A stretch of 64,000 nt of DNA from a virus (Duplodnaviria > Heunggongvirae > Uroviricota > Caudoviricetes). Location of the stretch: the IMG/VR virus record IMGVR_UViG_3300008114_000011. One strand, written 5' to 3'. A program made the position numbers and the translations under genes. This document shows, in pieces, positions 4,693 through 62,906 of this stretch. The first letter of the stretch is position 1, and every line of letters begins with the position of its first letter. Under the pieces are notes generated by a model. That model was not told the origin of the DNA. It saw nothing but the letters and a program-made list of their open reading frames with translations, and ran no database searches.

Positions 4693-4697
4693 ATCAT

Positions 4698-5432: not shown

Positions 5433-5434
5433 TT

Positions 5435-5626: not shown

Positions 5627-5659
5627 AAAATTTGTTAATCACTAAAAAGAATTAGGAAT

Positions 5660-26004: not shown

Positions 26005-26019
26005 AAAATAGGTTAGGTG

Positions 26020-29969: not shown

Positions 29970-30770
29970 ATGAAAAAGACAAATTATTACGAAATTTGTA
30001 ATCAAAAATTGAAGTATTTAAACTATTCAGATAGGACTATCAAGTCCTATCTTTATTATATTAATCAATTTTTAGAAAATACTAAAATACCACCAACCAG
30101 ATTAACAGCAACAGATTTCCAACAATATCTCAATAATTACAATTTTACCTCCACCTCACAACAAAATCAAGTCATAAACTCAATAAGATTCCTATACAAA
30201 GAATCACTTAATAAAAAATATGATAAGGTTGATTTTAAAAGACCTAGATCTGAAAAGAAACTACCAAAAGTAATTGATGGCGATTATATCAAATCTAAAC
30301 TTTCTAAAATAGAAAACCTTAAGCATAAAACTATACTTACTTTAACCTATTCAGTTGGTTTAAGAGTTTCCGAAATAATAAATCTTAAAATAGAAGATAT
30401 TGACTCCAAAAGAATGATTATTCATATTAAAAATGCTAAAGGTAAAAAAGATAGAATTGTACCACTTTCAGAAAACGTACAAAATCTAATAAAAATATAT
30501 TCAGAAAAATATACACCAAAAGAATATCTTTTTAATGGTCAATCCACAAACAAATATTCAATACAATCCTGTCAAAATATCTATAAAAAATATATTGATG
30601 AAAATTCATCTATACATACCCTCAGACACTCAGCCTTTACCAACCTCTTAGAAAATGGAACAGATCTAAGAATAATACAGAAAATAGCAGGTCACTCATC
30701 CACCAAAACAACAGAGATATATACACACGTTTCTAATCAACTTTTAAATAAAGTTAATCTACCAATTTAA
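29970..30770 (+). CDS. tyrosine recombinase/integrase (XerC/D-like)
   Basis: C-terminal catalytic block HTLRHSAFTNLLENGTDLRIIQKIAGHSSTKTTEIYTHV (R..H-x-x-R..Y). Confidence 0.85.
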   Translation: MKKTNYYEICNQKLKYLNYSDRTIKSYLYYINQFLENTKIPPTRLTATDFQQYLNNYNFTSTSQQNQVINSIRFLYKESLNKKYDKVDFKRPRSEKKLPKVIDGDYIKSKLSKIENLKHKTILTLTYSVGLRVSEIINLKIEDIDSKRMIIHIKNAKGKKDRIVPLSENVQNLIKIYSEKYTPKEYLFNGQSTNKYSIQSCQNIYKKYIDENSSIHTLRHSAFTNLLENGTDLRIIQKIAGHSSTKTTEIYTHVSNQLLNKVNLPI

Positions 30771-33172: not shown

Positions 33173-33889
33173 ATGAGAAATAATTTAGTAGAGATATTTC
33201 ACGATACTCAAATCAAGTCCGTGAAGTTTAATGATGGTGTTACAACACAACATTCAAATAATGAGATAGTTGGACCTTATTTATCAGTTTATAAAGGTAA
33301 TGTTAAGGTCGTTAATTTAGATACGGTATCTGCTCTTGTAGAGTTATCTAAGTCTGGTAAAACTTGTGGCTTGAATATGGCTTCGTATAAGAAACCGGGT
33401 GGTGGAGTTCGTAATGGAGCCAGAGCTCAAGAAGAATGTTTATTTAGATGTTCTAACTTAATCAATTCAATTGTAGAAGATTTTTATCCATTAGAAGATG
33501 GTACTTGTCTTTATACATCAGATGCTACATTCTTTAAAGATAAGGATTATAATGATATGGAACCGGTTGAGTGTGATATTATTACGATAGCTGCTATAAA
33601 CTTAAACAGTCGTAGTTATGATAAAGAGACTTATGAAGAGATTACACTCCAAAAGATAAGATTGATGCTTACTATCCCATCTAAACATGGTGTTGAGAAC
33701 TTGGTTTTGGGAGCTTTTGGTTGTGGTGTTTTTGGGAATGATCCCCATGTGATGTCAGAATTATTTAGAAAGGTTTTAGTTGAAGAAGGTTATTCATCTT
33801 TATATAAAGAGGTTGTTTTTGCTGTTATAAACGATCATAATTCTGTTGGTAATAATTATAGTGTGTTTTCTGATAAATTCTACTCTTAA
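33173..33889 (+). CDS. bacterial-type poly(ADP-ribose) glycohydrolase-like macrodomain protein (DUF2263 family)
   Basis: PARG signature GGG-x7-QEE (KPGGGVRNGARAQEE) plus GAFGCGVFGNDP. Confidence 0.65.
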   Translation: MRNNLVEIFHDTQIKSVKFNDGVTTQHSNNEIVGPYLSVYKGNVKVVNLDTVSALVELSKSGKTCGLNMASYKKPGGGVRNGARAQEECLFRCSNLINSIVEDFYPLEDGTCLYTSDATFFKDKDYNDMEPVECDIITIAAINLNSRSYDKETYEEITLQKIRLMLTIPSKHGVENLVLGAFGCGVFGNDPHVMSELFRKVLVEEGYSSLYKEVVFAVINDHNSVGNNYSVFSDKFYS

Positions 33890-42396: not shown

Positions 42397-43242
42397 ATGG
42401 AAATGACACCAAAAAACATCATTAAATTAGTAGCGATTTCTTTAGTTTCGCTTATCAGTATTATCATCTTTATCACGTCTTGGGAAGATGTAGAACAAGG
42501 TTCAGAAGGGTTCCTTTATAAACCATATAGTGGAGGTATCCAAAAAGAAGTAATCTATGACGAGGGTACTTACTTTGTAGCTCCTTGGAACGAAATGGTT
42601 ACTTACAACATTCGTCAACAATCAAAACGTGATACAACAACCGTAATGGATATCAACGGTACAGATATCACAGTTGTTTTATCAACTAACTATTCAGCGG
42701 CTAAAGGTAAAACACCTAAACTACACTTAAAACACGGACCTGGTTATATCCAAGTTATTGATGATAAAGTGAAAGGTGCTATTAAAGACGTAATTGGTCG
42801 ATATACTTACCAAGAGGTTTACTCAACTAAACGTGAAGCACTTGAAGAAGAGATTGAGGAAATCCTAAGAGAAGACTTTTCTAAAAACTTTATAACATTG
42901 AACTATGTTGAGTTAGCAGACGTAAACTTACCAGGAGCAATTGCGAATGAGATTGTTAGTAAAGAAACTCAAAAACAGCGAAACTTAACTTCTGAGTTAA
43001 AGAAAACTGAAGAGAAAAACTTAGCAGACGCTAGAATTGAAAAAGCACGTGGTGACTCTTCTTTAATCATTACAGCAACCTTTAAAGCAGAAGCAATTAA
43101 GAAAGAGGCTCAACAATTAAATAAAAACCCTCAGTATATCGAATACATTAAGTGGAAAGGATACGCTGATGGTCAAGGTTCACCTTATGGTTCTGGCAAC
43201 GTCTTTGGTTCAGGGACTACTGTGATAAAAGGAATTAAGTAA
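42397..43242 (+). CDS. SPFH/band-7 (prohibitin/HflC-like) membrane protein
   Basis: N-terminal TM then SPFH-type core and coiled-coil region. Confidence 0.65.
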   Translation: MEMTPKNIIKLVAISLVSLISIIIFITSWEDVEQGSEGFLYKPYSGGIQKEVIYDEGTYFVAPWNEMVTYNIRQQSKRDTTTVMDINGTDITVVLSTNYSAAKGKTPKLHLKHGPGYIQVIDDKVKGAIKDVIGRYTYQEVYSTKREALEEEIEEILREDFSKNFITLNYVELADVNLPGAIANEIVSKETQKQRNLTSELKKTEEKNLADARIEKARGDSSLIITATFKAEAIKKEAQQLNKNPQYIEYIKWKGYADGQGSPYGSGNVFGSGTTVIKGIK

Positions 43243-46404: not shown

Positions 46405-47193
46405 ATGGGAAAACATTATTTATATAAACATATAAGAAATGATAGTAATATCATTTTCTATATTGGTATAGGGACAAAAAATAAATCTGATATAACTTAT
46501 AATAAGTATAGTAGGGCTTTTAATAAAAAAAGGAGAAATAAACATTGGTTAAATACAGTTTCTTTATTGAATGATGATTATTCAATTGAGATAGTATGTG
46601 AGACCGATGATTATGAATATGTGAAAAGTCTAGAAAAAAATCTGATTTTATTTTATGGTAGAAAGGATCTAGGTTTAGGTAATTTAGTAAATATGACAGA
46701 TGGTGGTGATGGTCAAATAAAAAGAGTTTGGAGTGAAGAGTCTAGGAAGAAGGCATCTAAATCACACATTGGTAAAGTAATTGATGGTGAGTGGAAGAAA
46801 AATTTAATAAAAGCTAGATTTGGAAATAAATCACATTCTGGTCGAACTTTTTCAGATGAACATAGAAAAAAAATATCAGAAGCAGGTAAGGGAAAAATAC
46901 CTTGGAATAAGAATAGAGAATTATCCAATGATGAGATTGAAAAAATAAAAAAGGGTATAGAAGAAAATAAAAAAATTTGTTATATTTGTAATGTTGAGTG
47001 TGACTCTGCTAATTATAATAGATGGCATGGTGATAAATGTGAGATGGGATCTATTTTAGATAGGGTTGATGAGATAAAGGATTTATTGTATAATAAAGTT
47101 CCTTTACTTAGGATTAGTAGAGTTTTAGGAATAAAGTATAAATTATTGAGAAGATTAAAAGAGTCAGTTTTATTTAAAGAAGAATTATTATGA
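46405..47193 (+). CDS. GIY-YIG homing endonuclease with NUMOD3 repeats (I-TevI-like)
   Basis: YLYKHI..IIFYIGIG..R..NKHW GIY-YIG core; repeated SEESRKKASKSHIGK / SDEHRKKISEAGKGK. Confidence 0.8.
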   Translation: MGKHYLYKHIRNDSNIIFYIGIGTKNKSDITYNKYSRAFNKKRRNKHWLNTVSLLNDDYSIEIVCETDDYEYVKSLEKNLILFYGRKDLGLGNLVNMTDGGDGQIKRVWSEESRKKASKSHIGKVIDGEWKKNLIKARFGNKSHSGRTFSDEHRKKISEAGKGKIPWNKNRELSNDEIEKIKKGIEENKKICYICNVECDSANYNRWHGDKCEMGSILDRVDEIKDLLYNKVPLLRISRVLGIKYKLLRRLKESVLFKEELL

Positions 47194-47963
47194 AATATTT
47201 AAAAAAGAAATATCCGGATGGTAGCTTTTATGTTGAAGTAGAGGATTTTAGTGAACCTATAATAACCGAAAGAATAAATTCATATGAGGACCTTTTTTTC
47301 ATAAAATCCATCAAAGAGGTTTGTGATTTTAATGGAATTAAAGATGTTGAGTTATTTATACCATGTATGTTTCAACAGCAACATGACCGTAGATTTTTTG
47401 ATAATCAATCATTTGAACTAAAGATAGTTTGTGACTTTATCAACTCATGTAATTTTAGTAAAGTTTATGTTTTCCATCCACATTCTGATTCCACTCAAAT
47501 GGGATTGAATAATATTAGAGTTGTTGATAATTCTAAATTTATATCAAGTGTTTTAAGTAGAATTGATTCTAATCCAATATTATTTTCAACAGATGCTGGT
47601 TCATTTAAATGGATAAATAAATTAGTTGATAAAATAGGATTTAATGGTGATGTTTATTGTGCTAGTAAGTCTAGAGATTTAAAAACACATGATTTGAAGC
47701 AAGTTATTGATTGTTCTGATTTTGGTGGTAGAGATATATTAGTATTGGATGATTTATGTGTAAAGGGTGGTACATTTATAGGTCTATTGAATATGTTAAA
47801 GGAGAGAAATGTTGGTAAGATATACTTAGCAGTTAGTCATATGACTATTCAAGATCCAAATACAAGTCTTGAGTGTTATGATAAGATATTTACTACTAAT
47901 AGTAAGTATGACTATTATGTTCTAAATAATTTAGAATTGATTGATTATAAAAGTATTATATAA
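47190..47963 (+). CDS. ribose-phosphate pyrophosphokinase (Prs)-like phosphoribosyltransferase-fold enzyme; possibly a phage Adps-type ADPR pyrophosphokinase
   Basis: FHPHSD (cf. Prs MDLHADQ), PRPP-binding loop ILVLDDLCVKGGTF, LAVSHMT. Confidence 0.65.
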   Translation: MKYLKKKYPDGSFYVEVEDFSEPIITERINSYEDLFFIKSIKEVCDFNGIKDVELFIPCMFQQQHDRRFFDNQSFELKIVCDFINSCNFSKVYVFHPHSDSTQMGLNNIRVVDNSKFISSVLSRIDSNPILFSTDAGSFKWINKLVDKIGFNGDVYCASKSRDLKTHDLKQVIDCSDFGGRDILVLDDLCVKGGTFIGLLNMLKERNVGKIYLAVSHMTIQDPNTSLECYDKIFTTNSKYDYYVLNNLELIDYKSII

Positions 47964-47968
47964 AAGAT

Positions 47969-48826
47969 ATGAAAAACTTTAAAATAGGAGGTGTTCCCGA
48001 ACACTTCAACTTACCTTGGCGTTTAGCCATTGAAGAAGGAAGATTAAATGATTTAGATGTAAATCTACACTGGTCTGATATGACTGGTGGTACTGGTCAA
48101 ATGATTAAAGGTTTACAAGCAGGTTCAATTGACATCGCAGTTCTTCTTACTGAAGGAATTACAAAAGCAATTTTAGATGGTTTGGATGCCAAAATATTAA
48201 CAGTTTATGTTAAAAGTCCATTACGATGGGGTATTCACGTACCTTTTAATTCAGAAATGAAAACTTCTGATGATATCAAAGGTAAAACATTTGCTATCTC
48301 AAGAGAAGGTTCTGGTTCACACTTAATGGCTTATGTAAACTCATTTCAAAGAGGTTGGAATACCGATGATTTAAAGTTTGAAGTTGTTGGTGATGTTTAT
48401 GGTGGTTTATGGGCTTTAGAGAATGGGCAGTCTGATGTTTTCTTATGGGAAAAGTTTACAACTTATCCATTTGTTAAAGCAGAGAAATGTAAATGTATCG
48501 GTGAAGTTGTAACACCTTGGCCCTGTTTCGTAGTTGCTGTTAGAAACGAGATCTATGAACAACACAAAGATTTGTTAAGAGAAGTTATGAAAGTCGTTGG
48601 TGGTGTCGCAAATGAGATTAAAAACCCATCATTACATGATTTCTATTCAAATGAAATTTCTTGGAGATATAACTTAGAAAAAGATCAAGCTTCTACTTGG
48701 TTGAATGAAGTAGAATGGAACTACACTGGTGATAATGATGTTAATGATTATGAATTAGTAGTTGATTATCTACAAAAAATATCTCTTATTGAAGAAAATA
48801 AAGACTGGAAATCTAAATTATTTTAG
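47969..48826 (+). CDS. NMT1/THI5-like (periplasmic-binding-fold) protein, tentative
   Basis: FKIGGVPEHFNLPW N-terminus resembles the NMT1/ThiY/THI5 family; weak. Confidence 0.35.
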   Translation: MKNFKIGGVPEHFNLPWRLAIEEGRLNDLDVNLHWSDMTGGTGQMIKGLQAGSIDIAVLLTEGITKAILDGLDAKILTVYVKSPLRWGIHVPFNSEMKTSDDIKGKTFAISREGSGSHLMAYVNSFQRGWNTDDLKFEVVGDVYGGLWALENGQSDVFLWEKFTTYPFVKAEKCKCIGEVVTPWPCFVVAVRNEIYEQHKDLLREVMKVVGGVANEIKNPSLHDFYSNEISWRYNLEKDQASTWLNEVEWNYTGDNDVNDYELVVDYLQKISLIEENKDWKSKLF

Positions 48827-48862
48827 AGGTAATAGGTTCTTATATATATAAGTATAAAAGAA

Positions 48863-49846
48863 GTGATACTTATGTTAGAAGAATTTATAAAAAAATCGAT
48901 AGTTAAATTTGGTAATAAATTTGATTATAGTAAGTTTAATTATGTGAATGCTAAAACTAAATCTATAATCATATGCCCAGTACATAAAGATTTTTTTCAA
49001 ACACCTGATAAGCATTTACGTTCAAAATATGGATGTAAATTATGTTGGGAAATTGAAAAAAAGAAAATAAAAAGAGATTATGTAAAGGGTCCAAATATCA
49101 TTTCAAAAGATGAGTTCTTGGGTAGATGTTATGAGAAGTTTGGTGATAAATTCAAATACGATTTATCAAACTACAATGGGTTTGTTGGTGATTATATAAA
49201 AATAACTTGTTCAGAACATGGTGATTTTTATACAAAACCGAATATACATTTATTAAGTAATAACACCTATGGGTGTAAATTATGTGCTAATGATAATAGA
49301 GTACTCAATAAAACACAAACCTATGATGATGTTATAGAAAAATTATCAAATATTTATAATGATAAATATATTTATCCTGAATATAATAGAGATACTTATA
49401 TTAACAAGAGGTCGAAAATAGATATAATTTGTCCGGATCATGGGCTATTTGTTAAGAGTGTTCAAAAACACCAAAGCGGTCAATATTGTTTTGAGTGTAA
49501 AATTAAGAATATGGTTTTTAATAATATTTTAGTTGGTGGTTACACTGAGAAATTATTTGAAGATAAACCAGAATTAAAGGATAAAAAATCTAAATTATAT
49601 TATTTGAGAATAAATAATGGTGATTATTATAAAATAGGAATAACAACAGTTTCGGTTGAAAGTAGAATAAAGTCATTGAAGAGTAAATCTAAAGGTTTTA
49701 TAAAAGATGTTGAGATTTTATTTGAAAAGGAAATGTCTTTATATGAATCATATATCATGGAGAGTAAAATATTAAATGATAATATAGATAGTAGAGTTTA
49801 TAAAAAATGGAGTACTGAAATTTTCAACAAAAATGTTTTGGAATAA
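48863..49846 (+). CDS. homing-endonuclease-like protein: three zinc-ribbon modules plus C-terminal T5orf172/GIY-YIG-like domain
   Basis: three CP-xHG-x-F..H..GC-xxC repeats; KLYYLRINNGDYYKIGITT..R C-domain. Confidence 0.5.
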   Translation: MILMLEEFIKKSIVKFGNKFDYSKFNYVNAKTKSIIICPVHKDFFQTPDKHLRSKYGCKLCWEIEKKKIKRDYVKGPNIISKDEFLGRCYEKFGDKFKYDLSNYNGFVGDYIKITCSEHGDFYTKPNIHLLSNNTYGCKLCANDNRVLNKTQTYDDVIEKLSNIYNDKYIYPEYNRDTYINKRSKIDIICPDHGLFVKSVQKHQSGQYCFECKIKNMVFNNILVGGYTEKLFEDKPELKDKKSKLYYLRINNGDYYKIGITTVSVESRIKSLKSKSKGFIKDVEILFEKEMSLYESYIMESKILNDNIDSRVYKKWSTEIFNKNVLE

Positions 49847-49881
49847 TAGAATAATTATTATCTTTATAAAAAATAAAAACT

Positions 49882-51462
49882 ATGAACTTTTTAGAAATTT
49901 ATTATACCGATGTGTATAAAACAGGACACAAACCAATGCTACCAGTGGGTAGTGTTTTGATGCAATCAAATTTTACACCAAGGAGTGGTAAATATAGCAA
50001 TTGTCCAAATAATGGTAAAATTGTTTCGTTTGGTCAACAAATGATGGTGAGAAAAATGAAACAAGATTGGGATGTTAACTTTTTTCAAAGACCAATTGAA
50101 GAAATCGATCAATTTGGGAAGGATTTAACAGATATGTTAATGCTGAGTGATCCTTTTGATGTTACTCACTTCAAAGAACTACATAAATTGGGATATCTTC
50201 CGATTGAGTTTAGAGCAATCACTGAAGGTGAGAGAATTCCGTATAAAATACCATTATCGACTATCGTTAATACTAAACCTTTAAATGGTCAAGTTTTTGA
50301 CTGGATAGTTAATTACTTAGAAACTATTAATTCTGCTGAATCTTGGCAAGCACCAACTTCAGCGACGCTATCATTCGCATTAAGAGAGTTATCAACAAAG
50401 TGGATCACAAAAACAGATCCGGAGAGTTTGTGGTTTGTTGACTATCAAAATCATGATTTCTCAATGAGAGGTATGGGTGGTAAATCAGCTATTGTTAATA
50501 GTGGTTTAGGATTTGCTACTTGTTCGAGAGGTTCAGATACACTACCTGTTATACCAGCTGCTAGAATGTATTATGATGAAAAAGATGTTTGTATCAACTC
50601 TGTTATCGCATCTGAACATGCTATTATGTGTTCATTGACTGGATTTTTCATTAAGACTAAAGATGGTTCTTGGGATAAGGTTGGTAACTTTGAAGTTGAG
50701 ACATTTAGGTATTTATTAAGAACTTTTCCAACTGGAATATTGTCATTAGTATCTGATACTTGGGATTTATGGAGAGTTATTACGGAGTACTGTCAAATAT
50801 TAAAAGATGAAATTTTAGCAAGAGATGGCAAACTTGTTATCCGTCCTGACTCTGGTGATCCAGTAGATATTATTTGTGGTAGCATAACTCCAGATATGTC
50901 TTCTTATAATGAAAGATACAAACAACCTCAATATAAAGGTGTTATCGAGTTATTATGGGATATCTTTGGTGGTACTGAAACATCAACCGGATATAAAAAA
51001 TTAGACTCACACATTGGTGCTATCTATGGTGACTCTATTAACTATAAGAGAGCTGAGAGTATTTATGAAAGATTATCAGCTAAAGGATTTGCAACAACAA
51101 ACATCGTTCTCGGTGTGGGATCCTATTCACTTCAGATGGTAACACGCGATACACATGGTATGGCTCAAAAAGCAACCTACATCGAAATTGAAGTTGATGG
51201 TGATGTTGAAGGTATCAACATCTTTAAAGACCCTATCACTGATGATGGTACTAAAAAATCAGCAACTGGATTACTAAAAGTAGTTAAAGTTGATGGTGAG
51301 TTTACATTAATTGATAAATGTACTTGGGATGATGTTAACTCGGAAGATAATGAGCTGAAAGTTATCTTCAAAGATGGTAAGTTCTATAACGAAACGACTT
51401 TGACCATCATACGTGGGAAGTTAGAGGATCTTGTTTCTAAAGAACAACCTGAATTAGTTTAA
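49882..51462 (+). CDS. nadV: nicotinamide phosphoribosyltransferase (NAMPT/NadV) family
   Basis: TDVYKTGH, IRPDSGDPVD and NIFKDPITDDGTKKSATGLL match NAMPT blocks. Confidence 0.85.
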   Translation: MNFLEIYYTDVYKTGHKPMLPVGSVLMQSNFTPRSGKYSNCPNNGKIVSFGQQMMVRKMKQDWDVNFFQRPIEEIDQFGKDLTDMLMLSDPFDVTHFKELHKLGYLPIEFRAITEGERIPYKIPLSTIVNTKPLNGQVFDWIVNYLETINSAESWQAPTSATLSFALRELSTKWITKTDPESLWFVDYQNHDFSMRGMGGKSAIVNSGLGFATCSRGSDTLPVIPAARMYYDEKDVCINSVIASEHAIMCSLTGFFIKTKDGSWDKVGNFEVETFRYLLRTFPTGILSLVSDTWDLWRVITEYCQILKDEILARDGKLVIRPDSGDPVDIICGSITPDMSSYNERYKQPQYKGVIELLWDIFGGTETSTGYKKLDSHIGAIYGDSINYKRAESIYERLSAKGFATTNIVLGVGSYSLQMVTRDTHGMAQKATYIEIEVDGDVEGINIFKDPITDDGTKKSATGLLKVVKVDGEFTLIDKCTWDDVNSEDNELKVIFKDGKFYNETTLTIIRGKLEDLVSKEQPELV

Positions 51463-51512
51463 TTTAAACAAGGCACCAAACTTGTAAACTAATTTCTTTA
51501 TTCACTCGTTAA

Positions 51513-51541
51513 AAAACCCACTCAATTGAGTGGGTTTTTTG
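51513..51541. terminator. bidirectional rho-independent terminator between convergent genes
   Basis: AAAACCCACTCA-AT-TGAGTGGGTTTTTT. Confidence 0.7.
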
Positions 51542-51548
51542 TTTATAG

Positions 51549-51932
51549 TTATTCAAATATAGATACTTTTATTTGTGGATTTCTAATAAGTTCTCCATAT
51601 TCCATACCATCATCATATGTTATTACACATTCGTAATTTGGATATTCATCTTTTACTTTTTTAATACCACTATTTATATCATTCATTATATCTTTTGTAA
51701 TTTGGAGATCTTTTATATAATCTTCAATTTTCATAAGAGGTGATCCATCCCAATTATTTCGATAATCTACTTTTGGCTCTGGTAACTTTTCAAACTCTAT
51801 TAAAACAAAATCTTCATCATCAATATATTTGATTTTATCAGACTCTATTAAATCAATAAAGCATAATTTTACATAGTCGTAGTCAAAACTATCATCTTCA
51901 ATATTCTCATTAAACTTTTTTAAGTGTTTCAT
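51549..51932 (-). CDS. hypothetical acidic protein with MKHLKKFNEN N-terminus
   Basis: ORF; shared N-terminal motif. Confidence 0.5.
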   Translation of the reverse strand: MKHLKKFNENIEDDSFDYDYVKLCFIDLIESDKIKYIDDEDFVLIEFEKLPEPKVDYRNNWDGSPLMKIEDYIKDLQITKDIMNDINSGIKKVKDEYPNYECVITYDDGMEYGELIRNPQIKVSIFE

Positions 51933-51947
51933 ATTTATCTTTATATT

Positions 51948-53663
51948 TTATGTACAATCTGGACAATCAATTCTACCATCACCATCACATCGATTACACC
52001 AAATTCTACCTTCACCATCACAATCACCACACTCTCTGGTACCATCACCACCACATCTATCACATTCGTTAGTACAGTCACCCTCACATTCAGAACAATC
52101 TTGTTTACCTGATCCACTACAATAAGAACACTCATTTCCCTCATCATCTTCTCCAGTTCCATCACAACTAGAACAGTCTTCTTTTCCAGTTCCTTCGCAG
52201 TTATCACAAGGTAGAGTACCGTGTCCATCACAATTAGAACATTCTACTTCACCAGAGGCACCACATTCTTCACAATCATATCTTCCATCACCCTCACATT
52301 CATAGCAATCAATTCTTTCATCACCACCACATCTTTCACATTCTTCTCCATTACCACCATCAGTTTCTCTTAGTTCGTAATAGTTACTATTTATTACTAA
52401 TTTTTGCTCATTTGTTAAGAATCCATAATCCCATTCATAATAACAAAGAGTATCTAAATAAGGGTATTTACTAAAGCCGTTCATTTCTAAATCAACTTTA
52501 ATTGTTCCGATGTTTGAATCAGAACCATTAAACATAAACTCTTCCTCTGAAATATTTTGATTTTTCTTATAAACATATCCCATTTTAATTGCGTATTTAA
52601 TAAACAATTCTTGGTCTGGTGAATTACTCACATAAATTCTATCCATAAATGGTTTTCCTTCTGATTCGGTATGTTTTACTAAATTATATTTCGTTATTAC
52701 TCCTTCATCATCACCACCATCCCATGGCATATATTCTGGTTTTTTCCAAAGAAGAGCTCTACCTATAATTTTAGTTGGATCTTCTTTAGATTTTAATATA
52801 ACTAATCCAACACTTTTAGGATTTTTAGAATATATGTTTAAGTAGTCTTGACATCTAGCATGTCTCATACAAGATGCTCCTAAAGTATGATTACCACCTC
52901 GATAATAATTACCTTCATAATAAAACTTTTTAATATCATCACCTTCAACCAATTCAAAATCAGAGAATATATTTTCTTTTTTAGCTTTAGTGGCAATTGA
53001 AAACTTAGTTACAAAATCTTCAACTTCAGTTCCTTTAACTTCTTTACCAGCTTTCTTCAATAGTGATTGAACGAATGATCCAACTCTAACTTCTTGTGAG
53101 GAAACCGCTCCCTCACCAATTTTAAGACCATAATCTTCAATGATAAGATCAATATTCTCACCACTTCTATTAAATCTTATATGATAAATTTTACGTCCTT
53201 GATCAAGATACCATTTTAATCTATTTTTTACATCCTCATCATTAAAATCATCAATACTTGTTATCTGTTTAGTAATAGTAGCTTTTTGGTTTCTTTGAAG
53301 TAATTCATACCAATTCAAAAAACCTTTTTCGACTCTTGGATCTTCAAATAATTTAGCAAATGATGTAAATATTTCTTTTGATAAGATAGACAATGATGCG
53401 CCAAAATCAATTATAACACAAGAGTTTTTAGACTTTTTATCGGATTTAAATTGTATAAAGTTGTCTTTATCATCAGAAATATCAATAAAGTTTGTATCAA
53501 CATCAACGTCAACACCCTCTAAATCTAAAATCTCTTTTGAAAGTGGACTATTAACCGACTTCAAAATTTCTTTGAAATCATCTTTATAAACCATATTACC
53601 TTCAAGTAGTAAATTGAGTTTACTCTCGTTTAGGAAACTATCATATCTTAAAATATTACTCAT
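51948..53663 (-). CDS. hypothetical protein, paralog of 61155..62276, with C-terminal array of ~12 DnaJ-type CxxCxGxG zinc-finger units
   Basis: shared core GxSCM..GRALLWKKP..FMDRIYV..KYPYLDTLC; tail CERCGGD..CYECEGDG..CEECGASG.. Confidence 0.6.
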   Translation of the reverse strand: MSNILRYDSFLNESKLNLLLEGNMVYKDDFKEILKSVNSPLSKEILDLEGVDVDVDTNFIDISDDKDNFIQFKSDKKSKNSCVIIDFGASLSILSKEIFTSFAKLFEDPRVEKGFLNWYELLQRNQKATITKQITSIDDFNDEDVKNRLKWYLDQGRKIYHIRFNRSGENIDLIIEDYGLKIGEGAVSSQEVRVGSFVQSLLKKAGKEVKGTEVEDFVTKFSIATKAKKENIFSDFELVEGDDIKKFYYEGNYYRGGNHTLGASCMRHARCQDYLNIYSKNPKSVGLVILKSKEDPTKIIGRALLWKKPEYMPWDGGDDEGVITKYNLVKHTESEGKPFMDRIYVSNSPDQELFIKYAIKMGYVYKKNQNISEEEFMFNGSDSNIGTIKVDLEMNGFSKYPYLDTLCYYEWDYGFLTNEQKLVINSNYYELRETDGGNGEECERCGGDERIDCYECEGDGRYDCEECGASGEVECSNCDGHGTLPCDNCEGTGKEDCSSCDGTGEDDEGNECSYCSGSGKQDCSECEGDCTNECDRCGGDGTRECGDCDGEGRIWCNRCDGDGRIDCPDCT

Positions 53664-53753
53664 AACTTATATATAAAAATGTTTAACTTAAAAAAATTTT
53701 TTCACATTTTATGAAAAGAAACTTTTCGATTTTGATAATAAATATATACTATT

Positions 53754-54587
53754 ATGGAAAAGGGATATATTTATAAAATAATTTCACCAACTAACAGGAT
53801 TTATATTGGTAAAACTTTTAATTTGGAAAAGAGAGTAAGATCTTATAAAGGTTTATGGTGTAAAAAACAAAGAGTTTTGTATAAATCATTAGTTAAATAT
53901 GGTTGGGATAAACATAGTTTTGAGATACTATTTGAAGATTTTTGTAGTGAGGAATATTTATCTGAGTTGGAGACAAAGTATATAATTGAATATAATAGTT
54001 TTCGAAGATACAACTATAAATTTGGAATGAATTTAACTCTTGGTGGTGAAGGATCTTGTGGATTAAAACATACGGATAAAACTAAAAAAATGATATCCGA
54101 AACTAAGAAAAAGGCTAAAAGAACGGAGAAAGAGATTTTAGCAAGTGAAAAAAGAAGAGGGACTAAGGTTTATAAAAGTGAAGAGTGGATTAAAAATAAC
54201 GCAGAGAGTATAAAAAAACCAATATTGCAATATGATTTGGATGGTAATTTTATCAAAGAATGGAAAAGTGCTAAAGATATTGAATTGGAATTGGGATTTT
54301 CTAGGAAAAACATTTCCTGTAATGTTAGATATAAAAGTAATAGTGCATTTAACTTTATATGGATTTTTAAAAATGCCGATCTTAAAATAGATGATATTCT
54401 AATAAGGAGAAAAAGAGAAAGAAAAAAACCAACTAATAGTATTAAGGTTTTAGATATTGAATGTAATATTGTCTATGATAGTATAATGGATGTAGTTAAA
54501 AATACTAACATGACATATGCTAAAGTTTATCGAGTTATATACAGTAATGATGAGAATAAAAAGTATATTATATATGAAGAGAAATAA
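53754..54587 (+). CDS. GIY-YIG homing endonuclease with NUMOD-type DNA-binding repeats
   Basis: GYIYKI..IYIGKT..R..Y core; HTDKTKKMISETKKKAK repeat. Confidence 0.75.
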   Translation: MEKGYIYKIISPTNRIYIGKTFNLEKRVRSYKGLWCKKQRVLYKSLVKYGWDKHSFEILFEDFCSEEYLSELETKYIIEYNSFRRYNYKFGMNLTLGGEGSCGLKHTDKTKKMISETKKKAKRTEKEILASEKRRGTKVYKSEEWIKNNAESIKKPILQYDLDGNFIKEWKSAKDIELELGFSRKNISCNVRYKSNSAFNFIWIFKNADLKIDDILIRRKRERKKPTNSIKVLDIECNIVYDSIMDVVKNTNMTYAKVYRVIYSNDENKKYIIYEEK

Positions 54588-55133: not shown

Positions 55134-55571
55134 ATGATTAATATAGGTGATAAACAAATAGAATGTTCTGTTCATGTTGTTCAGACATCAAAATTATCAA
55201 ATATAAGACGATTTGATGATACTTATGATATTTTAGGTAAGAATATACCAGGTGGTGAAAATTGTTTATTAGAGTTTCGTATTTTTGATAAAGTAGTTGC
55301 TACTTCTGACTTAGAAGATGAATACCCAAATATCGGATATGATTTTATTTGGACTTGGATTAAAAGTCCAAGTATTAGATCAGTTAAGGTTTCCTATGAT
55401 AGTGATAACAAAGTTAAAATACACAATGGTGTTGTAGTTGTTTCACCAGTTAAAAAGTTATATTCTGAAACAGATGTTATTGATATGTTATCATATGCTT
55501 TAACTAGTGATAGTAGTGAAAATATTAAAGAAAAAATAATTGAAGTGTTGGGTTGGTTTAAAACTAAATAG
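55134..55571 (+). CDS. hypothetical protein
   Basis: ORF. Confidence 0.4.
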   Translation: MINIGDKQIECSVHVVQTSKLSNIRRFDDTYDILGKNIPGGENCLLEFRIFDKVVATSDLEDEYPNIGYDFIWTWIKSPSIRSVKVSYDSDNKVKIHNGVVVVSPVKKLYSETDVIDMLSYALTSDSSENIKEKIIEVLGWFKTK

Positions 55572-55576
55572 TTTTT

Positions 55577-56014
55577 ATGAGGAGTTGGATTTTGTTTTTG
55601 ATTTTTTTACCATTTGTTACTTTCTCTCAATGGAATTTACATGAGGAAGTAACAAGTGGTTTAGATGCTTATAGAGTTGCTGATATTAAATCAGGTAATA
55701 GTGAATTGTTATTACAAGAGTATTATGAAGATGTTATGTTTTGTTTACATGACTCTACTTTTATTTCTGATACACAGACCGTAGTTTTAGAAATAACATA
55801 TGGTTTAGAAACAAAAACTTTTATCCTAAAAGACTTAATTGTTAATGACTATACTATTATACTATCTCCTGATGTAAAAAAAGAAGAATATTTTAATTAT
55901 TTGGAATTATCAAGGTCTATTAAAATTTCTTTAGTAGGAACTTCACCAACAAAGTGTTATCAGTTTAGTACAATAGGTACTATTAATGCTTATAACTACA
56001 TTATAGATTTATAA
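55577..56014 (+). CDS. secreted hypothetical protein (signal peptide)
   Basis: MRSWILFLIFLPFVTFSQ. Confidence 0.45.
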   Translation: MRSWILFLIFLPFVTFSQWNLHEEVTSGLDAYRVADIKSGNSELLLQEYYEDVMFCLHDSTFISDTQTVVLEITYGLETKTFILKDLIVNDYTIILSPDVKKEEYFNYLELSRSIKISLVGTSPTKCYQFSTIGTINAYNYIIDL

Positions 56015-56024
56015 ATTAAGAAAC

Positions 56025-57749
56025 ATGAAAAGAATATTATTTTTACTAACACTATTATTATCATTTAGTTCATTAGCAACTAATTATTATATTAGTTCAA
56101 CCGGAAACAATACAAACAATGGAACATCATCTATTACACCAAAATTAACATTAGCAAACGTTTTCAGCACCTATAATTTAGGTTCTAATGATACTATTTT
56201 CGTTGAAGCAGGAACTTATTCTGAGACAGGTATTACTGTTGGTACTGATGATGAAGGTTTTGTAATTTCTGGTGCGGCTTTATCATCTGGTGTACCTACA
56301 TCTATTTTTGATGCAGGTAGTACCGCAAGATGGTTATTGTTAAATAACACAAATAATGATAATATCACAATCACTAAATTAATTATAAAGGATCATAAAA
56401 ATTCTGATGGAGGTGATCCAGGAGGTGGTGGAGCAATTAAAATAATTGCTGGATGTACAGGATTTAAAGCAACTTATTGTCAGTTTGATAATTGTGATAC
56501 AAGAACTGCCTCTTTACATCACCGAGGTGGTGTTATTTATTCTGCTGAGGGAATAACCATCGATTATTGTACTTTCAAAAATTGTAATGCTGAATATTAT
56601 GGTGGTGCTATTTCAATAGAATTATCACCAACATCATCATCATCAATAAAACATTCAATTTTTTATTCAAATACCGCTACTAATTACGGAGGTGCTATAT
56701 TCTTTGGTGTTGGATCTACCTCTACTCTAACATTAGAAAACTGTTTATTTTATGAAAATAATACATCATCAGGAGAGGCTGTTATTGTTGCTATGAATAC
56801 ATATAGTACATTAAATATTATGAACTGTACTATAACTGCTAATGGTAATGCTTCTGTTGGAACTGGAGGTGTTTTGGCTTTATCATCAGCTAAAATAAAT
56901 TTAATAAATACAATTATTTATAATAATTTAGGTAATACTTTCAATGATGTTTATAATAATGCCGCTACCGTTAACATGACAAATTGTTGTTATGGAAATT
57001 CAGCTGAGATAAAATCAGCTACATCAAATACATCACCGTTAATATCAAATCCACTATTCACAAATAGTGCTAGTGATGATTATACACTTTCTGGTACATC
57101 ACCTTGTATAGATTGGGGAACAACAACCGGAGCACCAACTGATGATTTGAGACATTATAGTCGTATTGGTAATCCAGATGTTGGATGTTATGAATCAAAT
57201 GGTATTGCTTTACCAATTGAGTTGATTTACTTTAAAGTTAAATTTGAAGATGGTGTTGTTAAATTAAGATGGTCAACAGCATCAGAACACAATAATGATT
57301 ATTTCACAATTGAAAAGTCAAAAGATGGTTTAGATTATGATATAGTTACAACTCTACCAGGTGCTGGTAATTCAACTCAAAGAATAAACTATCAAGCAAT
57401 TGATCGAAATATTGAAACTGGAATAACTTACTATCGATTAAAACAAACTGATTATAATGGTGATTATAAAAGAACAGATTGGGAGTCTATATTAATTCAA
57501 TTAAATATTGAGAACTTAACGGTTTATCCAAATCCAATTACAAATGAAATAAATGTTTCTTTACATTCATCTTTTAGTAAGGTTGAAGACTTATTGATAT
57601 ATGATTTAACCGGTAAACAATTTTATAAAAAATCATTAGATTTACAATTAGGTGATAATTATTTTGATGTAGAGTTACCACAACTTTCTAAAGGTCTTTA
57701 CATACTACAAATAGGTGATAAGAAACTTAAACTTGAATATAATGATTAA
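56025..57749 (+). CDS. secreted right-handed beta-helix (pectin-lyase-fold) protein with T9SS C-terminal sorting domain
   Basis: signal peptide; Gly/Asn/Thr-rich beta-helix repeats; C-terminal ~80 aa match Por secretion-system CTD (..LTVYPNPITNEINVS..LYILQIGDKKLKLEY). Confidence 0.7.
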   Translation: MKRILFLLTLLLSFSSLATNYYISSTGNNTNNGTSSITPKLTLANVFSTYNLGSNDTIFVEAGTYSETGITVGTDDEGFVISGAALSSGVPTSIFDAGSTARWLLLNNTNNDNITITKLIIKDHKNSDGGDPGGGGAIKIIAGCTGFKATYCQFDNCDTRTASLHHRGGVIYSAEGITIDYCTFKNCNAEYYGGAISIELSPTSSSSIKHSIFYSNTATNYGGAIFFGVGSTSTLTLENCLFYENNTSSGEAVIVAMNTYSTLNIMNCTITANGNASVGTGGVLALSSAKINLINTIIYNNLGNTFNDVYNNAATVNMTNCCYGNSAEIKSATSNTSPLISNPLFTNSASDDYTLSGTSPCIDWGTTTGAPTDDLRHYSRIGNPDVGCYESNGIALPIELIYFKVKFEDGVVKLRWSTASEHNNDYFTIEKSKDGLDYDIVTTLPGAGNSTQRINYQAIDRNIETGITYYRLKQTDYNGDYKRTDWESILIQLNIENLTVYPNPITNEINVSLHSSFSKVEDLLIYDLTGKQFYKKSLDLQLGDNYFDVELPQLSKGLYILQIGDKKLKLEYND

Positions 57750-58476
57750 ACAAAAATTAGACGAATACTTAGAGTTTGATTCATCTTTGTTATTTGGTGA
57801 TGATACTTTCATCACTAATGAATTAAAAGATCGTGGAATAATTTATAATAAGTTAGTTAGAGTTTTTGGTGGAGCTTTAAGAGATATTATAGCCGGTCAA
57901 AAAATCAATGATGTGGATATATTAATTGGTACTAAATCAATGAATTTTGTTGATAAAGTATTAGTTGAGAATGGATATATTTATCATGAAAATTTAGCAC
58001 CTAAAGATCTATCATCTGTTTATGATATGAATATGGTTATATCTGAACCCTATTCTTATGTTAAAGGAACTAAAGTGGTTCAACTTATAAGACCAAGAGT
58101 TATGTCTGTTGAAAGACCATCCGATGTTACTCAAGATTTATACACGCAAACGTTTATTGATTTGATTGCTAATGTTGATATTAGTTGTTGTGGTATATCT
58201 TATGATGGTAAAAACTTATATCAAAACTATCCAGGTGCTATTTCACATGCTAAACATAGAAAGTTTCTTGTAAATAACTTAGCTAAAATGTATAATCAAA
58301 AAAGAATTAGTTCTAGAAGATGGAAGCTGATAAATAGAGGTTGGGAAGAGTTGAATGGAGTTGCTGATTATAGAGATTTTAAAATAGATGCTATTTTTGA
58401 TATCGAAAATTTTGAATATATAGATGAATCAAAAACCATAAATAAAAAGAAGAATAAAGAGTTCGATTTGTGGTAA
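57742..58476 (+). CDS. nucleotidyltransferase, CCA-adding/poly(A) polymerase head-domain family
   Basis: VFGGALRDIIAGQKINDVDILIG matches GGxVRDxLLG..DxDI (ORF-track start is GTG at 57715). Confidence 0.5.
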   Translation: MIKQKLDEYLEFDSSLLFGDDTFITNELKDRGIIYNKLVRVFGGALRDIIAGQKINDVDILIGTKSMNFVDKVLVENGYIYHENLAPKDLSSVYDMNMVISEPYSYVKGTKVVQLIRPRVMSVERPSDVTQDLYTQTFIDLIANVDISCCGISYDGKNLYQNYPGAISHAKHRKFLVNNLAKMYNQKRISSRRWKLINRGWEELNGVADYRDFKIDAIFDIENFEYIDESKTINKKKNKEFDLW

Positions 58477-58499
58477 TAAAAATAAAAAATAAAAAATAA

Positions 58500-59033
58500 A
58501 TGAGAAAACCCTTTAAGAGAGTAGAACCAAAAAGAAAACACAAAATTAATTTAGAAATAACATCAAGTGATGTTAGATTGATTGGTAATGGAGAACCAAT
58601 CGTTATTTCTAGAAATGAAGCTATTAGAATGGCTGAAGCAGAGGAAAAAGATTTGATTATGATTAATGAAAATCAAACTCCACCTATTGTTAGAATTGAG
58701 GACTACAACAAATTTCTTTATAATCAAGAAAAGATTGAGAAAGAGAAAAAGAAAAATGCTGTTAAATCCTCTTTAAAAGAAATACAATTATCGGTTAATA
58801 TATCAGATCATGATTTAGAAACTAAATCTAAAAAAGGTAGAGAGTTTTTAAGTGACGGTGATAAAGTAAAAGTTGTTATCTCTTTAAAAGGTAGAGAGAA
58901 AGCATCTCCAGAAAGAGGTGAGTTAGTTATGTTAAAATTTGCTCAATCCGTTGAAGAGTTTGGTACACCAGAGGCACTTCCTAAATTAGAATCCGGAAAG
59001 TGGTTAATGATTTTGAAATGTAAAAAGAAATAA
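58500..59033 (+). CDS. infC: translation initiation factor IF-3 homolog
   Basis: near full-length collinear match to bacterial IF3: VRLIG..GE..IS..EA...AEE...DL+.I.....PP+.RI.DY.KFLY...K...K.K......KEI......D..D...K......FL..G.KVK....+GRE.......++.......F........K.EG+..+M+L. Confidence 0.85.
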   Translation: MRKPFKRVEPKRKHKINLEITSSDVRLIGNGEPIVISRNEAIRMAEAEEKDLIMINENQTPPIVRIEDYNKFLYNQEKIEKEKKKNAVKSSLKEIQLSVNISDHDLETKSKKGREFLSDGDKVKVVISLKGREKASPERGELVMLKFAQSVEEFGTPEALPKLESGKWLMILKCKKK

Positions 59034-59136
59034 CTATCTTCACTTTATGAAGAAAACCATTCTAATATTAGGATTTTTTTTAGGAGCTATTGCCGGTATG
59101 ATAGCTTATAAATTAGAAAAACTATTCAAATGAGTA

Positions 59137-61158
59137 TTAAACCCATTTATCATTTTTTCTTTTAAGAAGTTTATCTCCTTCTAATTTATAAAACTTATAT
59201 TTTTTATCAATAGAAGTTATAACATAATATTTATCTGGTCCTAATTCCTTATATCTTTTCATATTACCAGTTACCTTAACACCATCCACTTCACCACCCA
59301 TTTGTTTGGCATAAGCCCATTTAATATAGTGTGGATCAACGTGTCTCGATCTTAATTTATCTTGTTCAATTGATGTTTCTAATGTAGATAATAAGTGAAT
59401 AAAAACTATTTCATATCCATTCTCTCTTGCTAAATCAAATATATCCTTAATGTGTTCATAACCAGTATCAGTATATTCTTTACCAGCACCGGTTGTATCA
59501 TAGATAAAGTTTTGACCAGTTTTCATAAAACCTTTCATCTTCATTAAGTTTAATTCAGACGCATTTTTTGTTCTACCACCTTCTTCTTTTTCTTTTCCTT
59601 TATAATAAACATTTGGATCTTTTGTGTAAAGAAGTGAAATATCATCAGTTGAGAAGTCTTTAATGTTTGTATTTTTTGTATGTAAATAATTATTCACAAA
59701 GTGTGAATTATGTAGTATTGTTGGTAAGTTACCACCTATGAAGTTATGATGTTTATCTAAGACTATATCATAAACATAATCATTATGTTCTATTGTTGAT
59801 ATATTAGTTATTTTATCAAAAAATAAGTTATTGTGATGATTAATATATGTTTCTGGTATATAAACATTATTCTCATTTAAAAAATTACATATTTTATTAA
59901 AACGTTTTTTCGTTATTACTCTTCTATATTTATAACTTCTAGTAAATCTATATCCAGTTTCATCTTCTGGTATAAATTCGGTAATAAAAAATAAAAAAAC
60001 AAATTTAAATAATAAGGATTTTTTATCATATATAGTCAGGGTAACAAGTGATGATTTTAATTTATTTGGAGAAATATTAAATAAATATATTAGATGTAGT
60101 AGAAAAAAAATTAAACCAATTGAAAAAACTAATACAAATATTGGTGGATTTATACCAAATGATGACATGGTGGAATTAATTTATAATAATAAATTAAACA
60201 TTAAAAGTGCATAAGATAAATCAGTAGCCATTTCATATGACGATGTGTAATATTCAACTCTATTTTCAAATACAGAACCATCACAAGATAAATAACTACC
60301 TAAGAAATGTTTTAATGATTCACTGTTTGATATTATATCATCCGGAATTCTAACTTTATGTGATTTGTTGCCAAAAATATAATCACCACATATTTCAGAA
60401 ATATTTGAAATAAAATCATATTTATCTTTTTTAAATCTTCGATTTCCTAATTTAATATCATCTGAATATTGAACACTATGTCTTATTTTTTTAGATTTTA
60501 CTGTTAATATTTTATTTTCTTTTTCGACACATTTTCTAAAATCATCTATTATATCAATATCTATATTTGTTAGTGTTAGAAATTTACTATTTTTATTTTT
60601 TATAAAATTACCATCACTTAACGAATAACCAATAATCCTTGATAATTCATTACTTATTTTTGATTTATTATTAAAAGTGTTATTTATTATTCTAGGTCTG
60701 GCTAACTTATCATCTATTGTTATTTCTGATGATTTTTTCCAAATAATATCACCGTTTTTTTCTAAAACTAATAATGGGTGTATAGGTGTAACTTTTATAT
60801 CAACACCCGTTTGTGTTTTTATATTTATTAACTTTTCTGAATAGCCTCTATATAAACTCGAAATCTCATTTTCCACAAACTCACCACTATCATTTAATGA
60901 TTTAACATATAAGTTTTTAACAGGAATATTTATTTCACCAATTTTTGATTCGGTGTTATAGTTATCTATCAATTTACCAATTTTAGTCATTTTATTATTC
61001 ACTAAAATGGGTGTATTATATTCTAAGCACTTTCCAATACCGGGAGCACCGATTAGGAAAACAGCTAATCCTTTTTCTTTATCTAATATTTCTGGAATTG
61101 GTTCATTCTTTGACCATTCTTCTTTTATGTAATTGAAAAATTCTTTTATATATCTCAT
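59137..61158 (-). CDS. P-loop kinase-like gene interrupted by a LAGLIDADG intein; intein reading frame contains an in-frame TAA (60181-60183)
   Basis: Walker A GAPGIGK|C-LEYNTPI (intein start) ... VYDIVLDKHHNFIGGNLPTILHN|S (intein end), restoring GAPGIGKS. Confidence 0.6.
59707..61029 (-). mobile_element. intein with LAGLIDADG homing-endonuclease domain (~441 codons)
   Basis: blocks A (CLEYNTPI), C (RIIGYSLSDGNF), E (HFLGSYLSCDGSV), F/G (VYDIVLDKHHNF..ILHN). Confidence 0.65.
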
Positions 61159-62294: not shown

Positions 62295-62906
62295 TTATCT
62301 TTTAATTCTTTTAATAGCACCTTTTATAACAGATTTATGATCAAATGCCATATCAACAATAGTTTCACCACTATAACTAACATCAATCCAATCACATTCA
62401 TCAGCATCATCAGCCGCGGATGTTTCAGGTATATCACTTAAAATAACTGAGAAAGCATAAGAAATACAATTCTTATTTCTTGGATCTCTCCACGGTTCAT
62501 TGAATACATCAATAAATCTCAAATATCTTTTAGGTACTTTTAAACTTGTTTCTTCTTCCAACTCACGAATAGCAGCATCTATTGGTTCTTCACCTTCGTC
62601 AATGTTCCCACCAGGACAAGCCCACTTGCCTTTAAATGGATCTTTATTTCTTAGAATTGCCAACATCTTATAATTTGAGCCAGTATCAACTAAAATAACT
62701 AAATCGACACAAGACATACCCGTATCAACTATCATATCACCATTCAATCTAAAAACATATGTATAACCTTTCTTTATTTGATTTATAGAATTATTTACAA
62801 AATTTCCAGAAGTTGTATAAACTTTACGATCTTTTATATCTAGAACCTTAACAGGTCCAAACCAATCACTCGAATTAAATTGGTTATAAGTTTTAATTTT
62901 TAACAT
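62295..62906 (-). CDS. Nudix hydrolase (ADP-ribose pyrophosphatase-like)
   Basis: Nudix box GGNIDEGEEPIDAAIRELEEETSL. Confidence 0.75.
   Translation of the reverse strand: MLKIKTYNQFNSSDWFGPVKVLDIKDRKVYTTSGNFVNNSINQIKKGYTYVFRLNGDMIVDTGMSCVDLVILVDTGSNYKMLAILRNKDPFKGKWACPGGNIDEGEEPIDAAIRELEEETSLKVPKRYLRFIDVFNEPWRDPRNKNCISYAFSVILSDIPETSAADDADECDWIDVSYSGETIVDMAFDHKSVIKGAIKRIKR

Follow-up and report, generated by a model that had tools for sequence, protein, structure and literature searches.

We analyzed a pair of adjacent genes carried on a 64,000-nucleotide stretch of DNA from a Caudoviricetes virus (IMG/VR virus record IMGVR_UViG_3300008114_000011), the whole of which is referred to below as the window. 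The first gene encodes a class II-type nucleotidyltransferase (NTase) and the second encodes a translation initiation factor 3 (IF3). Our analysis suggests that these are two separate accessory genes, an IF3 that belongs to a phage lineage and a class II NTase core that is not a conventional CCA-adding enzyme, and that they do not make up a module; we judge this reading as a whole to be likely. It draws its strength from the domain identities, the predicted fold, the conservation of motifs, the clade structure, the synteny and the absence of Shine-Dalgarno (SD) motifs. The interpretation offered by a first-pass annotation, which was made from the sequence without database searches and joined the two genes in a scheme of host translation initiation and tRNA maturation, was partly supported.

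Both genes were found where the first-pass annotation had placed them, and independent gene calls on five public contigs gave the same products of 244 and 177 amino acids (aa). They stand at the end of a run of five co-directional plus-strand genes (55134-59033) whose intervals measure 5, 10 and 23 nucleotides (nt), with one overlap of 8 nt. The features of the locus are:

55134..57749, plus strand: three genes spaced 5 and 10 nt apart, namely two open reading frames (ORFs) of 145 aa and then a beta-helix protein of 574 aa
57742..58476, plus strand: NTase, 244 aa, class II-type, a stand-alone head plus neck
58477..58499, plus strand: intergenic leader of 23 nt, A-rich (TAAAAATAAAAAATAAAAAATAA), with no SD motif
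58500..59033, plus strand: infC-like gene encoding a full-length IF3, 177 aa

The ATG of the NTase gene overlaps the stop codon of the upstream 574-aa gene (ATGATTAA), and the ATG of the IF3 gene lies immediately 3' of an in-frame TAA. The genes in 55134..57749 together with the NTase and IF3 genes are probably one transcription unit, so that the two co-directional genes of interest are probably co-transcribed. A promoter scan at the locus gave only background level, a terminator scan found none 3' of the IF3 gene, and a permissive Rfam scan found no tRNA cluster or leader element near the NTase or IF3 genes.

The earlier alignment of 58500..59033 with bacterial IF3 over its whole length was confirmed at the level of domains, family and structure. 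The protein matches IF3_N (PF05198) at residues 16-83 over the full profile, positions 1-70 (4.7e-19, 68.8 bits versus a cut-off of 26.9), IF3_C (PF00707) at residues 91-174 (8.5e-26, 90.2 bits versus a cut-off of 34.8) and the infC equivalog TIGR00168 at residues 11-177, profile positions 2-170 (142.5 bits versus a cut-off of 60), as well as phrog_9787, the 'translation initiation factor' PHROG (1.5e-41). Its architecture consists of a basic N-terminal tail, IF3_N, a Lys-rich linker (YNQEKIEKEKKKNAVKSS) and IF3_C, and its alignment with three solved full-length IF3s (chains of 180, 171 and 171 residues) runs from end to end. The 180-residue chain matches what we take to be the E. coli sequence, and the two 171-residue chains are presumably those of G. 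stearothermophilus and T. thermophilus, the output naming only the molecule. Identity to E. coli IF3 is 38%, with Y75, D106, K110, R133 and E134 kept. An alignment of 57 cellular sequences plus E. coli (58) contains 43 positions with a conservation of 80% or more, and the consensus of the phage clade equals the cellular consensus at 35 of these, most of the 8 differences being conservative; the core residues kept are N16, R25, D52, Y70, K72, K79, K94, D106, G121, K125, G132 and R133. Because of the domain and family matches and the 35 core positions retained, and with a domain order and length equal to those of cellular IF3, we regard the predicted product as a genuine, constrained, full-length bacterial-type protein.

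The phage gene differs from its cellular counterparts in its start, its surroundings and its distance in sequence. It begins with ATG and therefore lacks the AUU start used for autoregulation of cellular infC. The usual cellular context is thrS-infC-rpmI-rplT; no thrS, rpmI or rplT was found around the phage IF3, the neighbors of which are phage ORFans, the NTase gene and an intein-bearing kinase-like gene. Both the atypical start and this gene order are typical of cellular infC and not strictly defining. When GTDB was scanned with a peptide pattern, at one genome per species (185,579 genomes), 76 loci were retrieved from mixed phyla, Bacteroidota not among them; these loci are mostly 32-46% identical to the phage IF3 (one is 29% identical) and never more than 46%. 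A search of 5.8 billion metagenome proteins returned 397 homologs at E<=1e-10, and the best 120 of the 397 share 65-100% identity with the query. The phage-like contigs that carry more than 100 metagenomic homologs with 65-94% identity measure as much as 623 kb; three of these contigs were inspected and contain Phage_base_V, CHAP, DNA_pol_B and HNH genes amid mostly ORFans, and IMG/VR viral contigs of 83-436 kb carry IF3 copies that are 65-80% identical. By neighbor-joining, the window IF3 and its metagenomic relatives are monophyletic in 100 of 100 bootstraps, and the point-estimate tree places them as sister to the huge-phage IF3s of LR756500, LR756501 and LR756504 together with one contig from a metagenome-assembled genome.

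These results bear on the possibility that the IF3 gene was recently captured from a host chromosome and is carried as a passenger or dosage copy with no phage-specific role. Such a capture would agree with the canonical character of the protein and its conserved core residues, and phages do acquire host translation genes. It would not account for the ceiling of 46% identity among the GTDB loci when more than 100 homologs in phage context form a fully supported clade at 65-94% identity, nor for the absence of the infC context and the presence of phage ORFans in its place, and we consider it highly unlikely. Because the homologs in phage context are 65-94% identical, the sampled cellular ones at most about 46% identical and the neighbor-joining clade is found in every bootstrap, the evidence favors a long-standing phage lineage, within the set of cellular IF3s that was sampled.

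The first-pass annotation called phage-encoded IF3 uncommon. This holds across all phages, since 92 of 50,697 GenBank phage records have an IF3 match, but among huge and jumbo phages the gene is recurrent and published. IF1 and IF3 were reported in huge phages by Al-Shayeb et al. 2020 (PMC7162821), huge-phage initiation factors were discussed by Iyer et al. 2021 (PMC7824862), phage IF3 was found anew in soil huge phages in 2025 (PMC11748809), and IF3 is annotated in cultured jumbo phages such as CBB and Phosso. The phage IF3 described here is therefore a correct but ordinary annotation of a kind known since 2020; the JGI annotation of the same protein reads 'translation initiation factor IF-3'. 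We compared it with the IF3s of LR756504.1, LR756501.1, Pectobacterium phage CBB (CBB_318), Cronobacter phage GAP32, Sinorhizobium phage Phosso and Agrobacterium phage Atu_ph07. It has in common with them a full-length two-domain bacterial-type protein, a very large genome and adjoining accessory genes, and the role presumed for the known phage IF3s is the redirecting of host translation initiation. It is unlike them in that identity is only 34-42%, in that its own metagenomic clade is separate and well populated, and in that its genome is SD-less.

The NTase required a different approach. The motif GGALRD..DVDI noticed earlier, including the catalytic DxD, is present as motif A (F42-G-G-A-L-R-D48 ... 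D57-V-D59, FGGALRD..NDVDI), and G43, G44, R47, D48, D57 and D59 are invariant in 39 homologs. The other invariant residues are F42, E102-P103, Q114, N144-V145, R188, R192, K195, R199 and R211; they include parts of the motif B equivalent (N144-V-D146-I-S-C-C-G) and a conserved basic helix (R188, R192, K195, R199). In Pfam, PolyA_pol (PF01743) matches motif A only (profile positions 2-30) with 20.3 bits, which falls short of the gathering score of 23, versus 87.3 bits for a huge-phage CCA enzyme used as a control. The match to phrog_1614 is at 0.005, and there were 0 matches to NCBIfam. When PDB sequences were searched with the profile of the NTase family, the matches were marginal, at E 0.04-0.9 and confined to motif A, and a structure search was needed. 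The AlphaFold2 model built with 39 homologs has a pLDDT of 83.7 and a pTM of 0.82, and all of the 45 best Foldseek matches in the PDB (45/45) are class II tRNA NTases (CCA-, CC- or A-adding) or poly(A) polymerase, with alignments of up to about 230 columns that correspond to head plus neck. A class II fold with a pol-beta-like head bearing GGxxRD...DxD is thereby supported for the modeled protein. The family is large in metagenomes, where a first search gave 178 clusters and the count at E<=0.001 is 610 representative ones (members of the best 150 of these 610 are mostly 200-260 aa long), and almost absent from GenBank phage records, where only LR745206.1 (635 kb) and LR756502.1 (642 kb), 2 of 50,697, have a homolog.

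The description of this protein as a CCA/poly(A)-type NTase thus stands as regards the fold and not as regards the family. Class II tRNA NTases and bacterial poly(A) polymerase, for example the A. aeolicus CC-/A-adding enzymes (3wfo/4wby), the T. maritima enzyme (3h37) and E. coli poly(A) polymerase (3aql), are about 370-450 aa long versus 244 aa here, and identity to them is 12-16%. The body and tail domains (PF12627, PF13735 or equivalents) are absent, as the NTase stops at residue 244, where the body domain would start; the control CCA enzyme, from LR756504 (L003), has both and matches PolyA_pol, the RNA-binding PolyA_pol_RNAbd and tRNA_NucTran2_2. An hhalign comparison of the NTase with this enzyme (81% probability, E 1.2e-5) sets the invariant N144-V145-D146 opposite the R-R-D of motif B, so that the Asp alone is retained. 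No EDxxR (motif D) is visible in the family consensus on the C-terminal side of motif B, where the region reads AKMYSxxRxxHRxxKLxxRGW, a correspondence that is our own reading as the hhalign alignment ends before the motif D region. The defining features of CCA enzymes and poly(A) polymerases thus appear to be absent or altered and, because there is no tRNA-binding body and tail and no templating motif is apparent in the consensus, the predicted protein is not a conventional CCA-adding enzyme. Closer in size are stand-alone head-domain proteins, such as S. pneumoniae NP_344798.1 (PDB 2la3) and the short phage and giant-virus entries in BFVD named 'PolyA_pol head' or 'nucleotidyltransferase'. 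Like the NTase, these are short (about 170-220 aa), contain only the class II head and are widespread in viruses; TM-scores of about 0.4-0.5 and identities of 12-22% set the NTase apart from them as a distinct sequence family.

The element was said by the first-pass annotation to have its own tRNAs in a cluster. Two tRNAs in the window reach the Rfam gathering score and ARAGORN in intron mode adds one candidate, so that the tRNAs themselves are present, but they lie 32-46 kb away and there is therefore no tRNA cluster beside the IF3 and NTase genes:

11867-11961, plus strand: candidate tRNA Tyr-GTA with an 11-nt intron, found by ARAGORN in intron mode only, no encoded 3' CCA
12126-12215, plus strand: tRNA gene of 90 nt, found by Rfam only (40.3 bits), 46 kb from the IF3/NTase genes, no encoded 3' CCA
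26015-26084, plus strand: tRNA-Leu, anticodon TAA, at the Rfam gathering score, 32 kb from the IF3/NTase genes

The first two are 165 nt apart and have near-identical acceptor stems (AGTCAGG.../AGTCAGA...). The tRNA genes of the window, tRNA-Leu included, lack an encoded CCA, which would fit if the NTase were a minimal CCA-adding or repair enzyme that restored tRNA 3' ends, those of phage and host alike, for example when host defense nucleases have attacked them, as part of a translation and tRNA module in which IF3 sustained translation. The exclusive match of the fold to CCA-, CC- and A-adding enzymes and poly(A) polymerase and the invariance of the DxD in the family agree with this proposal, as do an RNase P protein gene that follows the NTase homolog in LR756502 and a canonical CCA enzyme two genes upstream of IF3 in LR756504. 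Many phage records, moreover, match a canonical CCA enzyme over no more than its head/neck half (about residues 23-227) and are annotated as tRNA nucleotidyltransferase (seen among the best 40 of 489). The real huge-phage CCA enzyme, however, has PolyA_pol_RNAbd and tRNA_NucTran2_2, and the NTase, which is head and neck only, has no RNA-binding Pfam domain, carries N-V-D in place of R-R-D, shows no EDxxR in the family consensus, scores below gathering on PolyA_pol and matches nothing in NCBIfam. We did not, on these grounds, retain the suggestion that the NTase serves tRNA maturation.

The organization of relatives speaks against the same proposal. The NTase-IF3 pair recurs on contigs with identical proteins (L004-L007) and in one close relative, L088, in which IF3 is 92% identical to that of the window and the adjoining NTase is 55% identical. 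The NTase thus evolves much faster than the neighboring IF3, and the two are therefore unlike co-evolving partners. Outside this closest lineage the adjacency is lost in both directions. No NTase was found within 4-8 kb of IF3 in 18 IMG/VR loci (0/18) or in the three loci L085-L087 (0/3), or beside IF3 in LR756504, LR756501, LR756511, LR756500, Phosso and CBB; conversely, no IF3 lies nearby at any of the 6 NTase loci outside the lineage (L001, L002, L089-L092). In three distant huge phages the NTase occurs in a conserved block of two large ORFs, NTase, in some cases an M50 gene, DUF5522 and HU. Its neighbors vary, with HU, DUF5522 and M50 in these three phages and RnpA, RNase T, RecA and PPK2 elsewhere, and a conserved neighbor that would hint at its function was sought and rejected as the neighbors differ between loci. 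The adjacency of IF3 and NTase is a lineage-specific arrangement and not a functional or conserved module; the earlier idea of a functional pairing was therefore given up, and we regard a joint tRNA and translation module as quite improbable.

A different role for the NTase is suggested by precomputed Pfam annotation, in which PF26128 (Gad2) appears on the NTase and on about half of the listed homologs, graded only 'weak' or 'faint'. Gad2, known from phage SPbetaL7 and a Brevibacillus laterosporus prophage, is phage-encoded like the NTase; it is a protein of about 400 aa that is needed to overcome Gabija and has an AlphaFold-predicted NTase domain (Yirmiya et al.). We took two Gad2 sequences from the supplement of that paper and compared them with the NTase by profile. 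The comparison pairs residues 36-196 of the NTase with residues 28-161 of Gad2 over 132 columns (E 2e-4), with an hhalign probability of only 46%. The two have in common GG...INDVD, a Q-x-I strand, D-(I/F)-(S/T)-x-C-x-G and an N-terminal K-L-x-x-Y-L helix. If the NTase were a Gad2-like anti-defense enzyme, acting by nucleotidyl transfer against Gabija or another immunity system, IF3 would be a mere neighbor, and the divergence of the NTase at 55% versus 92% for IF3 would be of the kind often seen in arms-race genes. Against such a function, Gad2 is 394-400 aa long and its C-terminal approximately 240 residues have no counterpart in the 244-aa NTase, the conserved block in three distant huge phages looks like a core gene and not a swappable cassette, and the mechanism of Gad2 itself is not established. 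P0303, a long NTase-family member (407 aa), was considered as a bridge to the Gad2 architecture and rejected, as its tail is low-complexity and unrelated to that of Gad2. Scanning the NTase, the IF3 and the neighboring proteins with PADLOC gave nothing meaningful, PADLOC covering defense and not anti-defense proteins. A distant relationship of the NTase domains, without membership in one family, is plausible from the profile alignment, and we consider an anti-defense role of the Gad2 type unlikely.

The window is AT-rich (G+C 28.5% overall, 25-34% in 2-kb segments) and has 87 predicted genes; public contigs of this genome extend to 171,766 bp. A megablast of 14 kb of the window against GenBank phages gave 0 matches, so it has no close relative there at the DNA level, and family scans of the window proteins found no structural genes. 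A survey of SD usage, as the first-pass annotation had proposed, found an SD-like motif upstream of 3 of the 87 genes, which is below the background of 7.4% at random positions. Adenine makes up 0.57-0.66 of the bases over positions -14 to -9 of the window genes, with a maximum of 0.66 at -11, versus 0.38 overall; the SD-less A-rich leader of IF3 is thus typical of the whole window. SD-poor, A-rich leaders are the Bacteroidota style of translation initiation. The gene immediately 5' of the NTase encodes a C-terminal sorting domain of the type IX secretion system (T9SS; Por_Secre_tail, 1.5e-09), and a Bacteroidota host fits because of this domain and because of the SD scarcity and A enrichment. 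As regards genome size, the two GenBank phages with an NTase homolog measure 635 and 642 kb, and the top GenBank-phage IF3 matches are to genomes of 636 and 735 kb. All genomes above 634 kb described by Al-Shayeb et al. (PMC7162821) belong to the Mahaphage clade, with predicted Bacteroidetes hosts. The element is most likely a huge (jumbo) phage with a Bacteroidota host.

On this basis a mode of action can be proposed, in which the biochemical activities and the consequences for host translation are all predictions. IF3 binds the 30S platform and blocks premature 50S joining, and on the 30S subunit it acts against initiation at non-canonical start codons, with non-initiator tRNAs or on leaderless mRNAs; E. 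coli IF3 represses its own AUU-initiated mRNA. The phage IF3 would be made during infection from its ATG start behind the A-rich, SD-less leader and would bind the platform of the host 30S subunit as the host IF3 does. There it would keep 30S subunits free and tighten the proofreading of start codon and initiator tRNA, and initiation might be sustained or biased toward phage mRNAs with ATG starts and A-rich leaders. With its ATG start the phage gene would also escape the AUU feedback, which would raise IF3 activity. The phage IF3 thus probably biases initiation on host 30S subunits. The NTase, for its part, probably adds a nucleotide to an acceptor, be it the 3' end of an RNA or something else, in a Mg2+-dependent reaction that would be carried out by D57 and D59. 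A bolder version of this proposal holds that an old, phage-specific IF3 lineage, kept vertically by many huge phages, has become tuned to the SD-independent initiation of Bacteroidota on A-rich leaders and re-selects the mRNAs used by the host 30S, so that phage ATG/A-rich leaders win over host messages, with the NTase acting on an RNA 3' end, of tRNA or of another RNA, in the same takeover; we regard this version as rather unlikely.

Several points weigh against our preferred reading of two separate accessory genes, and should be kept in mind. Both proteins are described here from sequence and models, and the assignment of the host is indirect. The comparison set and the trees contained no IF3 from Bacteroidota, and the clade might descend from a host lineage that is old or went unsampled. 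In the C-domain, the phage IF3 carries R99S, R116E, R129S and R168G relative to E. coli IF3, and these four arginines are implicated in 30S binding; in the cellular sample, conservation at each of them is below 80%. In the NTase, the invariant Q114 is aligned by hhalign with the conserved acidic residue in the 'IDIA' strand of CCA enzymes, and Gad2 likewise has Gln at the equivalent position, so catalytic competence would rest on D57, D59 and possibly E102. Finally, in LR756502 (L002, region 5983-7454) an RNase P protein (RnpA) gene comes after the NTase homolog, and in LR756504 (L003, region 3937-6540) a full-length CCA enzyme lies near IF3; such neighbors may leave some small room for a role of the NTase in RNA metabolism or translation. 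The LR756502 locus also contains a second, unrelated Pol-beta NTase 2 kb downstream, and in LR756504 (636 kb) IF3 is preceded by two acyl-carrier-protein-like genes as well as by the CCA-adding enzyme.

The genes that flank the pair have features of their own. The 574-aa protein (56025-57749, plus strand) has a signal-peptide-like N-terminus, a beta-helix/DUF5123-like middle part and the T9SS C-terminal sorting domain, and is apparently a phage protein exported through the Bacteroidota-specific type IX secretion system of the host, judging from these domains. Directly 3' of IF3 is a 28-codon ORF (59047-59133, plus strand; MKKTILILGFFLGAIAGMIAYKLEKLFK) with one predicted membrane helix, which was likewise gene-called on contig L005. 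It is followed on the minus strand (59137-61158) by the P-loop kinase-like gene, with AAA_33 and Zeta_toxin matches that are both sub-threshold and with an intein inserted right behind the Walker A lysine (GAPGIGK|C...HN|S) that has Hint and LAGLIDADG parts. The kinase-like/intein frame is interrupted by one in-frame stop (60181-60183), after which comes an odd hydrophobic stretch, and the split is identical on other contigs; the gene may be decaying or may contain an extra insertion within the endonuclease domain. Its counterpart in L088 is intein-less and encodes 232 aa.

Elsewhere in the window the accessory genes comprise homing endonucleases, a phosphoribosyl pyrophosphate (PRPP)-synthetase-like gene, a nicotinate phosphoribosyltransferase (NAPRTase) gene, a NUDIX gene, genes for a microbial-type poly(ADP-ribose) glycohydrolase, an SPFH protein and a tyrosine recombinase, and the intein. 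The PRPP-synthetase-like, NAPRTase and NUDIX genes, with a periplasmic-binding-protein-like gene, form an NAD-salvage-type set (46405-54587 and 62295-62906) that is interleaved with homing endonucleases. The coordinates of these accessory genes are:

29970-30770, plus strand: XerC/D-type tyrosine recombinase (1e-35)
33173-33889, plus strand: microbial-type poly(ADP-ribose) glycohydrolase domain protein (1e-20)
42397-43242, plus strand: SPFH/Band 7 protein (3e-23)
46405-47193: homing endonuclease, NUMOD3
47190-47963: PRPP-synthetase-like gene
47969-48826: periplasmic-binding-protein-like gene
48863-49846: homing endonuclease, HNH/T5orf172
49882-51462: NAPRTase gene
53754-54587: homing endonuclease, GIY-YIG
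62295-62906: NUDIX gene

Neither the IF3 nor the NTase changes current concepts, and both add members to categories that have been described since 2020. The NTase family is the less charted part, and may represent a minimal RNA-end modifier or an anti-defense enzyme of the Gad2 type. Initiation factors encoded by phages are a clear sign that huge phages take over the ribosome and do not only borrow it. To our knowledge no phage IF3 has been functionally tested, and the abundant, conserved IF3 clade described here (65-94% identity), which comes from SD-less genomes, would be a good candidate for addressing how mRNAs are selected independently of SD motifs.

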